Positions 9,068-14,975 of a stretch of DNA of 29,773 bases are shown here, one piece after another. The translations under genes were made by a program, and so were the position numbers. The DNA is from an uncultured Bacilli bacterium (GTDB taxonomy: Bacteria > Bacillota_I > Bacilli_A > RF39 > UBA660): NCBI GenBank assembly GCA_947628635.1, contig CANRAX010000001.1, positions 1 to 29,773 on the forward strand, written 5' to 3'. Every line of letters begins with the position of its first letter. Position 1 is the first letter of the stretch. The notes beneath the pieces were generated by a model. That model saw nothing but the letters and a program-made list of their open reading frames with translations, did not search any database and was not told the origin of the DNA.

Positions 9068-9100
9068 TTTAATGTTTCTTTAATATTAATTATTTAATAT
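9068..9100 (+). promoter_or_regulatory. Response-regulator box 1 with -10
   Basis: TTTAAT-GTTTC-TTTAAT (9068-9084), 10 bp, TAATAT (9095-9100). Confidence 0.55.
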
Positions 9101-9238
9101 GTATATGTAGTAATTTGTTATGAACTTTAGGCAATTTATAAATTTAGTTTAAAATAAAATTCTTATTTAAAAATCATGGGTAGTTTTAATTATGGTATAA
9201 TGGAAATGAAAATACACTTTAAAAGGAGGCGATATTTT

Positions 9239-9916
9239 TTGCGGATTTTAATAGTTGAAGATGAATATAGTCTTGCTGATGTAATAGCTACAAAATTAAA
9301 AGAAGAAAAATATGAAGTTGATATAAGTACAGATGGTGAAGATGGTCTTTTTAATGCCCTTAGCAATATTTATGATTTAATTATTCTAGATATTATGCTA
9401 CCTAAAAAGAATGGCCTTGAAATTTTAAATGAACTGAAAGAAAATAATATTTTAGCAAAAGTTATAATGCTTACAGCTAAAGCTGGATTAGATGATAAAT
9501 TAAAAAGCTTTGACACTGGAGCTGATGATTACTTAACCAAGCCTTTTCACATTGAAGAGTTAGTCGCAAGAGTTAATGTTCAATTAAGAAAAAAATTTAA
9601 AAATAAAATTAAAGATATTATTGAATATGGTGATTTAAGTTTAAATATTAGAACTTCTAGTTTAACTTGCATTAATACTAATGAGTCTATAAATGTTCCA
9701 TATAGAGAATTTATGTTATTAGAATATTTTATGAATAATAAAGAAACTATTATTTCAAGGGAACAAATTTATGATAAAGTTTGGGGATTAGATAATGACT
9801 TTGAATCAAACAATTTAGAAGCTTATTTATCTTTTCTGAGAAAAAAAATTAAAATAATTGGTTCAAAAGTAAATATAAAGGCTGTTCGTGGACTTGGTTA
9901 TAGAATGGAGATATAA
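9239..9916 (+). CDS. OmpR/PhoB-family response regulator (CiaR-like)
   Basis: Receiver motifs ILIVEDE, YDLIILDIMLP, TAK and GADDYLTKPF; winged helix with VRGLGY. Likely start is TTG 9239 after AAAGGAGG; extended -10 TGGTATAAT at 9193-9201. Confidence 0.93.
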   Translation: MRILIVEDEYSLADVIATKLKEEKYEVDISTDGEDGLFNALSNIYDLIILDIMLPKKNGLEILNELKENNILAKVIMLTAKAGLDDKLKSFDTGADDYLTKPFHIEELVARVNVQLRKKFKNKIKDIIEYGDLSLNIRTSSLTCINTNESINVPYREFMLLEYFMNNKETIISREQIYDKVWGLDNDFESNNLEAYLSFLRKKIKIIGSKVNIKAVRGLGYRMEI

Positions 9917-9917
9917 A

Positions 9918-11147
9918 ATGAAAGAATTAAGAAGGAAAACTTTTTTTACTATTTTTTTCATTATTTCTCTTTTTGGCATATGCTTTGCTATTTTATTTAA
10001 TGTTCAGGCTTATCAAAGAGAACATTTTGATATTTTAAATAATATAACTAGAGTGAAAAAAATTATTTTTAATGATGAGGATAAAAAACCTAGAGAAAAA
10101 AATGATGAAAAAGATCTTCAAAATAGGATGATAATGGATTATGAAGTATATACTTTTATATTAGATGTAGATAATAATATCATTTATAAAGTAAGTCATA
10201 GCGATAATGATGTAGATAATATTATTTTGAATAAAGCCCAAGAAATTTTAGATACTAAGCAAAAGAGTCAAATTCAAATAGGTAATTTATATTTTAGTAA
10301 TTATGCTTATAATTTTTCCAATGGTAAATTTTTAACAATAGTTAATATTTCTAATACCAAGACTAGATTATTAAAATTGCTACTGACTTCTTTGATGTTA
10401 CTTTTATTAGGTGAAATAGTTATCTATATAATTAGTAAAAAAATAACAAATTGGTTAACTCATCCGGTAGAAGAAAGTTTTAATAATCAAAAAGAGTTTG
10501 TTGCTAATGCTTCTCATGAATTAAAAACGCCATTAGCTGTTATGATTGCTAGTATCGATTGCTTAGAACCAAGTAAAAAGAATGAAAAATGGATAAATAA
10601 TTTGAAAAGTGAATCTGAAAAAATGAACAATTTAATAACTAGATTACTTGATTTATCAAAATCGGAAAATTATAATTTAAAAGAAGATTTTAGATTAACT
10701 GATATATCAAAAGTAATTGAGAAAATCGGTTTAACTTTTGAAAGTTTAGCTTTTGAAAAAAATGTAACTATAAAAACAAATATTGAAGAAAATATTATGT
10801 TTTTATGTAACAAAGAAAGTATAGATGAATTAGTTTCAATTTTAATTGATAATGCTATAAGTCATAGTGAAAAAAACAGTAGTATCATGATTAATTTATC
10901 TAAGGTTAAATCAGAAATAAAATTAGAAATTACAAACAAAGGTGAAGCTATTCCTGATGATGAGTGTGAAAAAATTTTTGAAAGATTTTATCGTAGTGAT
11001 AAAAGTCATAATCGAAAAAGTAATAGATATGGTTTAGGTCTTGCTATTGCTAAAAATATAGTTATTGGTCATAACGGTAGTATAACAGCCCACTCTAAGA
11101 ATGGTTATACAACCTTTAAAATAATCTTTAAAGTTAAGGAACATTAG
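9918..11147 (+). CDS. Sensor histidine kinase (CiaH-like, two TM, no evident HAMP)
   Basis: H-box FVANASHELKTPL, N-box ILIDNAISHS, F-box IFERFYR, G2 GLGLAIA. Likely start is ATG 9918. Confidence 0.93.
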   Translation: MKELRRKTFFTIFFIISLFGICFAILFNVQAYQREHFDILNNITRVKKIIFNDEDKKPREKNDEKDLQNRMIMDYEVYTFILDVDNNIIYKVSHSDNDVDNIILNKAQEILDTKQKSQIQIGNLYFSNYAYNFSNGKFLTIVNISNTKTRLLKLLLTSLMLLLLGEIVIYIISKKITNWLTHPVEESFNNQKEFVANASHELKTPLAVMIASIDCLEPSKKNEKWINNLKSESEKMNNLITRLLDLSKSENYNLKEDFRLTDISKVIEKIGLTFESLAFEKNVTIKTNIEENIMFLCNKESIDELVSILIDNAISHSEKNSSIMINLSKVKSEIKLEITNKGEAIPDDECEKIFERFYRSDKSHNRKSNRYGLGLAIAKNIVIGHNGSITAHSKNGYTTFKIIFKVKEH

Positions 11148-11155
11148 ATTTAAAA

Positions 11156-11188
11156 ATTAATATTTCTTTAATCTTGACATTTTATAAT
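11156..11188 (+). promoter_or_regulatory. Response-regulator box 2 with -10 (htrA promoter)
   Basis: ATTAAT-ATTTC-TTTAAT (11156-11172), 10 bp, TATAAT (11183-11188). Confidence 0.65.
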
Positions 11189-11211
11189 AAAAATATAAGG
11201 AAGGTGAATTT

Positions 11212-12615
11212 ATGTCTAAAAATATTAAAGATAATGAAGAGAGTATTAAAAGTAAGCAAAAAAAGGAAGAAAAAAACAGTGTAGGTGAAAAAAATAAGGA
11301 TTTAAACCTTAGCATTTCAAAAAGTAATGAAAGTGCTAAGACTGATTTTGAAAATTTAAATTCCGATGAGAAGATATTTGGAGAGAATATTTCAGAAAGA
11401 AAGGAAAGCGCTGATAAAGAAAAATCCAAACTGAAAAAAGGGAAAAACTTCTTTAATATAATTATTATTTTTATAGTATTTTTTGTTTTTCTAGTAGCGA
11501 TTGCTCTTGTTTGTTTTAAATTATTTGATGTAGTTAGTTCTTATATTGATAAAGAAGGGAAAGAAAAAGTTGAACTGAAGTATGCCGAAACAGATAAAAC
11601 TACTAATAATAAGAATAGTGAAGGTATATATATTACTGATGTTTCTGAAGTTGTAGAAAATGTAATGCCATCTATTGTAGCTATTACAAGTAAAACGCTT
11701 ATTTCATCTGGTATGTTTGGACCTAATTATTTTGGGCAAGAGCAATATGCCAAGGGAGCTGGTTCTGGTATAATTGTAAGTAAAAATGATACAGATATTT
11801 TAATATTAACTAATAATCATGTAATTGCTAATGCCTCTGAATTGTCTGTTCAGTTTATTAATGAAAAAAGTTATGACGCAAAGGTTGTTGGAACTTCTGA
11901 TAAAAAAGATATAGCAATTATTTCCGTGTCTTTAAAAGATATTGATACCAGCACTTTAGAAAAAATAAAGATAGCTACAATGGGAGATTCAAACAAATTA
12001 AAAGTTGGTAATGGCATTATTGCTATTGGAAATGCATTGGGTTATGGTCAATCTGTTACAACTGGTGTTGTTAGTGCTCTAAATAGAGAAGTTTCTATTG
12101 ATGATTATAATAATAAGATGATTCAAATAGATGCCGCTATTAATGGGGGTAATAGTGGTGGAGCTTTATTAAATGGCAATGGTGAAGTTGTTGGAATTAA
12201 TTCTGCTAAGTATTCATCTAGTGCTTATAGTTCATCTGCAAGTATTGAAGGAATGGGATTTGCTATACCTATCTCTGATGTTAGTGAGCTTATTACTTCA
12301 TTAATGAACGGGGAAGGAGATAATAGTGCAACAATTGGTATTGAAGGCTATATAGTCGATGAAAATAATGCTCTTAGTTATAATATGCCTTCAGGATTTT
12401 ACATATCAAAAATTGTTTCTGGTAGCGGAGCAGATAAATCCGATTTAGAAATAGGTAATATTATTACGAAAATTAATGATGAAAAAATTGATGATTTAAG
12501 TGATATTCAAGATGTTTTAGATGATTTAAAAAAAGGTGATAAAGTTAAATTAACAGTAAGTTATGTAAAAAGTAGAGAATATCAAGACAAAGAAGTTGAA
12601 GTTACTCTTTCATAA
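11212..12615 (+). CDS. htrA: HtrA/DegP-family serine protease with one TM anchor and one PDZ domain
   Basis: Catalytic motifs LTNNHV, KDIAII and DAAINGGNSGGAL; C-terminal PDZ (G..IGDII-like LEIGNIITKIN). Confidence 0.93.
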   Translation: MSKNIKDNEESIKSKQKKEEKNSVGEKNKDLNLSISKSNESAKTDFENLNSDEKIFGENISERKESADKEKSKLKKGKNFFNIIIIFIVFFVFLVAIALVCFKLFDVVSSYIDKEGKEKVELKYAETDKTTNNKNSEGIYITDVSEVVENVMPSIVAITSKTLISSGMFGPNYFGQEQYAKGAGSGIIVSKNDTDILILTNNHVIANASELSVQFINEKSYDAKVVGTSDKKDIAIISVSLKDIDTSTLEKIKIATMGDSNKLKVGNGIIAIGNALGYGQSVTTGVVSALNREVSIDDYNNKMIQIDAAINGGNSGGALLNGNGEVVGINSAKYSSSAYSSSASIEGMGFAIPISDVSELITSLMNGEGDNSATIGIEGYIVDENNALSYNMPSGFYISKIVSGSGADKSDLEIGNIITKINDEKIDDLSDIQDVLDDLKKGDKVKLTVSYVKSREYQDKEVEVTLS

Positions 12616-12660
12616 AATATGGTTTTCATAGGTAAAAAAGAAATAATTTTGATTTCTTTT

Positions 12661-12699
12661 TTTAATGTTTTTTTAATATTTACTTAATATAATATTAAT
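12661..12699 (+). promoter_or_regulatory. Response-regulator box 3 with -10 (ABC permease promoter)
   Basis: TTTAAT-GTTTT-TTTAAT (12661-12677), 10 bp, TATAAT (12688-12693). Further 11-bp-period copies CTTAAT (12683) and ATTAAT (12694). Confidence 0.65.
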
Positions 12700-14171: not shown

Positions 14172-14975
14172 ATGGCAAATAAGAATAACTATGTTTCAAA
14201 AGATAAACTTGGTAAGAATATTTCTAAAAAAGAGATTAAGGTTAAAACTAAAGAAGATAATGAATTAAAAGAAAAAAAAGAGATTAAGGAAAAAAATACT
14301 TCAGCAAAAAACGTTATTTTAAGTATTAAAAATGCTAGTTATCGATATAGTGATGCTGAAGAAGATGACTATGCTTTAAAAAATGTTAGCTTTGATTTTG
14401 AATGTGGAAAGTTATATGCTATAAGAGGCCGAAGCGGTACTGGTAAAACAACACTTTTATCACTTATAAGTGGACTTGAAAAGTGTACTGAAGGTGAAAT
14501 TATATTTGCTGGTAAAAGTTTAAAGGATATGAATTTAGATAAATATCGTAATAGTGATATAGGTATTGTCTTTCAAAGTTATAATTTGCTTCCTTTTATG
14601 ACAGCAAGTGAAAATATAATTCTTTCAATGGACGCAAATGGATTAAAAATAAAAAGCAAAAAAGAAAAAGCGATTGAACTTATGGAAAAAGTGGGATTAA
14701 AAGCAAGCTATGCTAATCGTAAAGTATTGAGATTGTCTGGTGGAGAACAGCAAAGAGTTGCTATTGCAAGAAGCCTATCTTATAATCCTAAAATGATAAT
14801 TGCGGATGAACCAACTGGAAATCTTGATAAACAAACGGAGAGTGAAATTTTAGAAATATTTAAAAAGTTAGCTCATGAAGAAAATAAATGTGTTATAATT
14901 GTAACTCATTCACAGAATGTTTGCGATACTGTTGATAAAATATATGACCTAAAAAAAGTCAAAGATGTTAACTAA
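14172..14975 (+). CDS. ABC ATP-binding protein, MacB/LolD type
   Basis: GRSGTGKTT, LSGGEQQRVAIAR, IIADEPTGNLD, VTH. About 45-aa K/E-rich N-terminal extension. Confidence 0.93.
   Translation: MANKNNYVSKDKLGKNISKKEIKVKTKEDNELKEKKEIKEKNTSAKNVILSIKNASYRYSDAEEDDYALKNVSFDFECGKLYAIRGRSGTGKTTLLSLISGLEKCTEGEIIFAGKSLKDMNLDKYRNSDIGIVFQSYNLLPFMTASENIILSMDANGLKIKSKKEKAIELMEKVGLKASYANRKVLRLSGGEQQRVAIARSLSYNPKMIIADEPTGNLDKQTESEILEIFKKLAHEENKCVIIVTHSQNVCDTVDKIYDLKKVKDVN

Follow-up and report, generated by a model that had tools for sequence, protein, structure and literature searches.

The locus considered here lies on a contig of 29,773 nucleotides (C1, analysed whole and referred to as the window) from an uncultured Bacilli bacterium, whose assembly comprises 1.07 Mb in 116 contigs at 27% G+C and is 73% complete. 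Its plus strand carries a run of five genes encoding an OmpR-family response regulator, a sensor histidine kinase, an HtrA-type serine protease, and the permease and ATPase of an ATP-binding cassette (ABC) transporter, and a direct repeat of the form WTTAAT-RTTTY-TTTAAT stands before the regulator, before htrA and before the permease. The question raised by this arrangement is which protein reads the three boxes, and to what effect. The preliminary description of the window took them for the binding sites of a two-component system resembling CiaRH of Streptococcus pneumoniae, and the comparisons reported below point the same way: the boxes are very probably the operator of the adjacent OmpR-family regulator, an activator site that replaces the -35 element in a stress regulon.

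Three boxes at a fixed distance from the -10 element

The three boxes have exactly the sequences, positions and spacing first described, each being followed after 10 bp by a -10 hexamer and lacking a -35 (Table 1), and they precede the regulator/kinase pair, htrA and the MacB-type ABC pair. At 16-18 bp spacing no more than two of six bases match TTGACA at any of the three sites, and a generic sigma-70 promoter scan called none of them. With no -35 present, the box spans about -39 to -23, the normal place of that element. Good ribosome-binding sites were found 5' of the htrA and permease starts. A perfect TTGACA does occur at 11174-11179, inside the 10-bp gap of box 2 and 3 bp from the -10; it is too near to serve as the -35 of that promoter, no usable -10 lies 16-18 bp downstream of it, and it is probably there by chance.

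A chance origin of the three boxes themselves is excluded by several measures. In the window, the pattern WTTAAT-N5-TTTAAT-N10-TAWWAT was observed three times against 0.01 expected from dinucleotide-preserving shuffles, and none of 100 shuffles reached three matches, in agreement with the earlier view that such a triple match would be improbable. In the whole assembly, the strict box WTTAAT-RTTTY-TTTAAT has three matches, all at these promoters. The looser half-site pair WTTAAT-N5-TTTAAT occurs 23 times, only four times with a -10 at the 10-bp offset, and the fourth match (C10:1813, minus strand) was taken as chance, since it falls at the 3' end of a coding region and is immediately followed by a terminator. 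A genome-wide scan against a random background, suggested as a check in the preliminary description, was carried out with a position weight matrix (PWM) trained on 40 sites from other genomes only, to avoid circularity. Boxes 3, 1 and 2, in this order, were the top three matches in the assembly; the next reached 17.4 bits (C42:2191) and was dismissed as lying inside a coding region with no -10, and ten third-order Markov random genomes of the same size peaked at 20.2 bits.

A different origin would be a duplicated promoter cassette, or an A+T-rich architecture resembling an UP element, with no specific regulator behind it. Boxes 1 and 3 are identical at 16 of 17 bases, as a duplication would leave them, and A+T-rich hexamers are cheap at 27% G+C. 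However, the scarcity of half-site pairs with the -10 offset speaks against cheap hexamers as the source, and the flanks around the three sites are unrelated to each other.

Table 1. Positions of the boxes, promoter elements, genes and hairpin in the window
Feature	Position	Strand	Evidence
Box 1, TTTAAT-GTTTC-TTTAAT; distal promoter of the regulator/kinase operon	9068..9084	+	PWM, 28.8 bits
-10 TAATAT, 10 bp past box 1, no -35	9095..9100	+	
Candidate second regulator promoter, extended -10 TGgTATAAT, no box	9193..9201	+	Read from the sequence
OmpR-family response regulator, 225 aa, TTG start	9239..9916	+	Pfam Response_reg PF00072 and Trans_reg_C (winged helix) PF00486
Sensor histidine kinase, 409 aa, two transmembrane (TM) segments, loop of ~120 aa, His200	9918..11147	+	Pfam HisKA and HATPase_c only; alignment
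Box 2, ATTAAT-ATTTC-TTTAAT; htrA promoter, 8 bp past the kinase stop codon	11156..11172	+	PWM, 22.2 bits
-10 TATAAT, 10 bp past box 2, 23 bp before the htrA ATG, no -35	11183..11188	+	
HtrA/DegP-type serine protease, one PDZ, Lys/Glu-rich N-terminal tail, membrane anchor	11212..12615	+	Pfam Trypsin_2 and PDZ
A+T-rich hairpin, 11-bp stem, then T run, 3' of htrA	12634..12662	+	ViennaRNA, -7.0 kcal/mol
Box 3, TTTAAT-GTTTT-TTTAAT; ABC operon promoter	12661..12677	+	PWM, 33.8 bits
-10 TATAAT, 10 bp past box 3, 27 bp before the permease ATG, no -35	12688..12693	+	
FtsX-domain (MacB-type) ABC permease, 482 aa	12721..14169	+	Pfam FtsX PF02687
ABC ATPase, 267 aa, Lys-rich N-terminal extension of ~48 aa	14172..14975	+	Pfam ABC_tran PF00005

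Conservation of the box with the two-component system

Conservation was assessed in a sample of 24 other genomes of the same family, seven of which hold an ortholog of the kinase (46-65% identity) and together provided eight orthologous loci for comparison. Directly past the kinase stop codon, all eight loci carry a perfect TTTAAT-N5-TTTAAT followed after 10 bp by TAnnnT, down to the lowest kinase identity of 46%, and the box is also found 5' of the permease in four of the eight and 5' of the regulator in four, with diverged flanks. The gene order regulator-kinase-htrA-permease-ATPase is kept in three loci, the others being without htrA or the ABC pair at this place. Box 3 and its -10 recur in nearly identical form before the permease in loci L031, L033, L034, L035 and L059-L065, a box upstream of the regulator is present in L032, L036, L037, L038 and several named metagenome-assembled genomes (MAGs), and the same architecture was seen in about 25 named MAG loci.

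Genome-wide, the pattern has 20 matches in the seven relatives, 19 of them on the contig with the two-component system. The box is present in all eight genomes with the kinase ortholog. Of the 17 in the family that lack this ortholog, 16 are free of matches and the last has just one. These genomes are kin, so that the co-occurrence counts overstate independence and do not amount to a formal test. A reversed-pattern control yielded 0-2 matches per genome, the same rate as in the genomes lacking the ortholog. That the box and the two-component system travel together argues that the adjacent regulator, rather than another protein, reads the box. If another OmpR-type regulator or an unrelated factor did so, with the adjacent system merely a target, candidates would be at hand, as two further OmpR-type regulators are encoded in the genome (on C12 and C49). 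Yet the 16 family genomes with neither ortholog nor box keep other histidine kinases, the sites cluster around this two-component system in every genome, and the type of box fits CiaR, the closest characterised relative of the regulator; recognition by a different protein is thus considered very unlikely. The comparison also bears on a promoter cassette or mere A+T richness, as across relatives only the box and the -10 are kept, and relatives of the same composition without the ortholog have no pattern. This explanation is strongly disfavoured, with a minimal chance of being right.

Some loci in the comparison showed features of their own. One genome (G006) carries two diverged regulator-kinase-htrA copies on its contigs C12 and C64 (L032 and L035), with kinases 65% and 55% identical to that of the window and with four and two boxes, respectively. 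In L031, L033 and L034, the kinase stop is followed by an inverted repeat, ACATTAAC, an A run and GTTAATGT, and then by a T run, together resembling a terminator hairpin, the 3' arm of which supplies one more TTAAT half-site, a third, situated 10 bp upstream of the box. Since this hairpin is missing between the kinase and box 2 of the window, transcripts reading through from the kinase gene may extend into htrA as well. Bacillota-type loci were moreover found on contigs under unrelated labels, namely Muribaculaceae (L063, L065, L083), Acidaminococcus fermentans (L075) and Treponema (L112 and L132). For L063, L065, L075 and L083, a G+C content of 22-29% and high identity to 'Bacilli' MAGs suggest that the contigs are misbinned or mislabelled; this argument does not extend to L112 and L132, which have 45-50% G+C and are only about 40% identical.

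Proposed mechanism, gene products and regulon content

In the most likely mechanism, the kinase would use its loop of about 120 residues to sense a cue from outside the cytoplasm and phosphorylate the regulator at D51, the phospho-acceptor predicted from its position, after which a head-to-tail dimer of the regulator would occupy both TTTAAT half-sites, which are spaced by one helical turn (11 bp). Since the box occupies the place of the -35, the bound regulator would recruit RNA polymerase to promoters that offer a -10 only, by class II activation of the kind known from CiaR and PhoB. The expected output would be more of the membrane-anchored HtrA, more of the MacB-type ABC exporter and, via box 1, more of the system itself by positive feedback, and the proximal extended -10 promoter of the regulator may provide basal expression.

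Whereas the sites, their significance, their conservation and their co-occurrence with the two-component system are shown directly, we infer both binding by the regulator and its sign, activation rather than repression, as well as the signal. As repressor sites, the boxes would be bound by the same regulator, with the dimer blocking RNA polymerase until stress relieves the block; the box does overlap the core promoter region, and CiaR itself represses some promoters. Promoters with so poor a match to a -35 should however be weak without an activator, boxes of the OmpR/PhoB type in the place of a -35 are classic sites of activation, and a fixed 10-bp offset in a single orientation is the published signature of CiaR-activated promoters (PMC3091779). 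Repression is therefore regarded as unlikely.

Apart from the kinship of the genomes, several points weigh against activation of all three operons by the adjacent regulator. Box 1 sits 138 bp upstream of the TTG start of the regulator gene, and the boxless promoter candidate lies nearer to that start and is possibly constitutive. Autoregulation is not universal, since the regulator gene lacks an upstream box in the close relatives L031, L033 and L034. The G at position 6, reported to be essential for CiaR (PMC3091779), is replaced by T in the window, and the regulon may be larger than three sites, the assembly being only 73% complete. As to the 138-nt leader past box 1, it corresponds to no known RNA, Rfam giving no match in the window.

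A large protein search yielded some 120 close homologues, none carrying a name, NCBIfam holds no specific equivalog for regulator or kinase (every match was below cut-off), and matches in the PDB were only generic ones to the OmpR family, the best being DrrD. Among named genomes, the window comes closest to MAGs from the gut of rabbit, reindeer, ruminants and Hadza people, most of which carry the label 'uncultured Bacilli bacterium'. The recognition helix of the regulator, NLEAYLSFLRKKI, is near-invariant among orthologs, with conservative changes only. No HAMP domain was detected in the kinase by Pfam, and about 26 residues separate TM2 from His200.

The htrA product matches the NCBIfam models degP_htrA_DO and SerProtHtrA, both below cut-off. 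It begins with a Lys/Glu-rich tail of about 90 residues (11212-11520) before the membrane anchor, and this tail, like the N-terminal extension of the ATPase (14172-14315), is kept among relatives in kind and not in sequence. The hairpin downstream of htrA is a possible weak terminator parting this gene from the ABC operon, and hairpins with a T run occur at the equivalent place in relatives. The transporter resembles MacB-type systems in its FtsX-type permease domain and MacB/LolD/FtsE-like ATPase: the permease gave weak PDB matches to MacB, YtrF, FtsX and LolF, the best being MacB and YtrF, and the ATPase matched the NCBIfam LolD, FtsE and MacB-type ATPase models below cut-off. Unlike E. coli MacB, in which the two are fused, permease and ATPase are encoded here as separate polypeptides. 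The system also differs from BceRS-BceAB, as the permease has 482 residues and one FtsX domain rather than about 650 residues and ten TM segments, and as the kinase, with some 120 residues looped out between its TM segments, is unlike the intramembrane-sensing kinase of BceRS, which has no extracellular domain.

In the relatives, the box precedes further genes, encoding an arylsulfotransferase-like membrane-anchored protein (PF05935), an Acyl_transf_3 O-acyltransferase and, between box and htrA, a thioredoxin-fold open reading frame (ORF) of 79 residues (PF13192) that is missing from the window. In more distant relatives (L036:3300-3550, L053, L037:3422-5266 and L038:4395-6206), the box-controlled genes encode membrane-anchored proteins with PPEMP or PPEKP repeats, followed by a beta-helix region, for which the Pfam Beta_helix match is weak, and a conserved C-terminal 'NIDFNGYKLYVNG' motif. 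The box-preceded genes of the relatives are all envelope or extracytoplasmic, which fits a role in envelope or secretion stress, and the three operons of the window probably form a compact regulon of this kind. In G001 and G005 (L031:5519-5755, minus strand, and the matching place in L034), the htrA ribosome-binding site and ATG (AAGGAAGGTGA...ATG; compare 11189-11214 of the window) open an ORF of only 3-7 codons, followed by the thioredoxin-fold ORF and then by htrA; these few codons might be no more than a remnant, or might encode a leader peptide.

Relation to CiaRH and the base at position 6

The likeness to CiaRH extends from the proteins to the promoters. Both systems pair an OmpR-type regulator with a two-TM kinase lacking HAMP, and the direct junction between TM2 and HisKA is common to kinase and CiaH (KP-x-ES-x-x-QK-x-FV-x-NASHEL); the junction that the preliminary description had called CiaH-like and HAMP-less, PVEESFNNQKEFVANASHEL, is indeed present in the translation. 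The regulator is 41% identical to CiaR, and from TM2 onwards, through to its C-terminus, the kinase shares 30% identity with CiaH, the CiaR and CiaH sequences having been taken from metagenome contigs via a search for the CiaR helix. Of the 13 residues of the recognition helix NLEAYLSFLRKKI, six are identical in that of CiaR, VVEVYVSKVRKKL (PMC3091779). The CiaR box has been described as TTTAAG-N5-TTTAAG, refined to NTTAAG-N5-TTTAAG, at 10 bp from the -10; its G at position 6 is invariant and has an important part in activation (PMC3091779). The boxes of the window share with it the direct hexamer repeat, the 5-bp spacer, the 10 bp to the -10, the lack of a -35 and a variable first T in the upstream repeat, as in box 2, and in site position the likeness extends to the regulon, with boxes before htrA and before the system's own operon. 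They differ in having T rather than G at position 6 of both repeats, and the regulon differs in that its targets adjoin the system, number three sites only in this assembly and include a MacB-type ABC exporter. Targets of the cia-dependent small RNA (csRNA) type were not found among the three significant sites of the 73%-complete assembly, each of which precedes a protein-coding operon, nor by Rfam in the window.

The phylogenetic comparison with CiaR that had been proposed earlier took the form of a quick maximum-likelihood tree; six genomes of the class contributed 32 other OmpR-type regulators to it, and CssR, ArlR, SaeR and YclJ were absent. CiaR was placed as sister to the entire regulator family and not nested within it, with an approximate likelihood ratio (SH-aLRT) support of 93. 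The family is marked by the helix x-NN-[VL]-E-[VA]-Y-x-SF-x-RKK and has members in Clostridium, Romboutsia, Paenibacillus, Oscillospiraceae and others. The helix pattern of CiaR itself had no match in 401 genomes of the window's GTDB class, as this class contains no streptococci. Taken together with the co-occurrence of box and system, the shared architecture, kinase junction and regulator identity bear out a CiaR-like system, and sequence comparison lends good support to the idea that the regulator works like CiaR; its status as a CiaR ortholog is only partly supported, since it belongs to a sister family.

The clade of the window regulator includes clostridial, Paenibacillus and other Bacillota regulators (helix YNNVEVYISFLRKK) at 44-53% identity. 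Members from Clostridium, Romboutsia and Sporanaerobium have boxes built like those of the window, 10-bp offset included, immediately 5' of the regulator gene, but these clostridial-type loci differ in having TTTAAG at least in the promoter-proximal repeat, often in divergent pairs at the regulator promoter, and in that htrA is not adjacent. The preliminary description had placed the regulon in a non-streptococcal lineage, which is correct for the lineage; such a setting is not new, as clostridial members of the family have the canonical TTTAAG-N5-TTTAAG in the promoters of their regulator genes, and as BAS0540/BAS0541 of Bacillus anthracis are CiaR-like, BAS0540 binding TTTAAG-N5-TTTAAG promoters in electrophoretic mobility shift assays (PMC4938410).

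It had also been proposed that the specificity of the regulator is shifted. The T in place of G is certainly there, in all six half-sites of the window and at 47 of 52 half-site positions when 26 sites were collected without constraint on this base (TTTAAN) from relatives of at least 58% identity and 22-29% G+C; the 40 PWM sites were chosen as perfect TTTAAT and give no evidence on position 6. Members of the window's clade with 41-52% G+C carry TTTAAT...TTTAAG, with G in the proximal repeat, and boxes of the G type were found in one Erysipelotrichaceae MAG (24% G+C) and in clostridia (26-28% G+C), with G in both repeats in L076 (24% G+C). The shift as such would thus have to be deduced from the base change, in the face of mixed boxes in the higher-G+C members and of the finding that no recognition-helix residue tracks G versus T among the family members; the specificity may instead be relaxed to accept G or T. 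A change from Lys to Phe in the helix (SKV in CiaR, SFL here) was considered as the cause and rejected, since clostridial SFL members and L076 (helix LNTLEAYISFL) carry TTTAAG. Pure A+T drift was rejected in part: base composition alone is insufficient to explain the T, as L076 and Clostridium carry G in spite of their low G+C, but the clade members with 41-52% G+C do have the proximal G.

A tentative explanation, on balance somewhat doubtful, is that a clade of uncultured gut Bacilli has re-tuned a CiaR-type regulator from TTTAAG to TTTAAT. In that case the family would present a natural graded series, from G/G in the clostridia and one Erysipelotrichaceae MAG through T/G in the higher-G+C clade members to T/T in the window. 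What determines the preference would have to be sought away from the obvious positions of the recognition helix, none of which tracks the change, and the series could serve to map the residues with which the winged helix of OmpR-family regulators reads position 6.

Other known systems resemble the locus in single respects. CssRS of Bacillus subtilis is a secretion-stress system that controls htrA and htrB and is encoded next to one of them, and the window system is likened to it by description only, as a two-component system dedicated to an HtrA-type protease in a neighbouring gene. In Staphylococcus aureus, the kinase SaeS senses within the membrane and has only a short extracellular linker, SaeRS targets virulence factors, and its sites are not known to sit at a fixed 10 bp from the -10; the architecture of the window kinase differs from that of SaeS. 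Compared by box only, the SaeR sites, GTTAA-N6-GTTAA with many natural half-sites reading GTTAAT (PMC5083920), share with the window boxes a TTAA core at an 11-bp period and an OmpR-family regulator. This core is thus common to several OmpR-type regulators of the Bacillota, and the flanking bases would carry the discrimination between them.

In summary, the three boxes mark a real and well-supported regulon of a CiaR-like system that is mechanistically ordinary, and with a textbook mechanism its value lies in annotation and not in concept. It provides a testable regulon for poorly known gut bacteria with small genomes, represented by 'uncultured Bacilli' MAGs from rabbits, ruminants and humans. 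The promoter design of CiaR, with its box, 10 bp and -10, reaches far past the streptococci, across a large family of Bacillota regulators, and the variation within this family of a base that is critical for CiaR constitutes a small natural experiment on the specificity between regulator and DNA.

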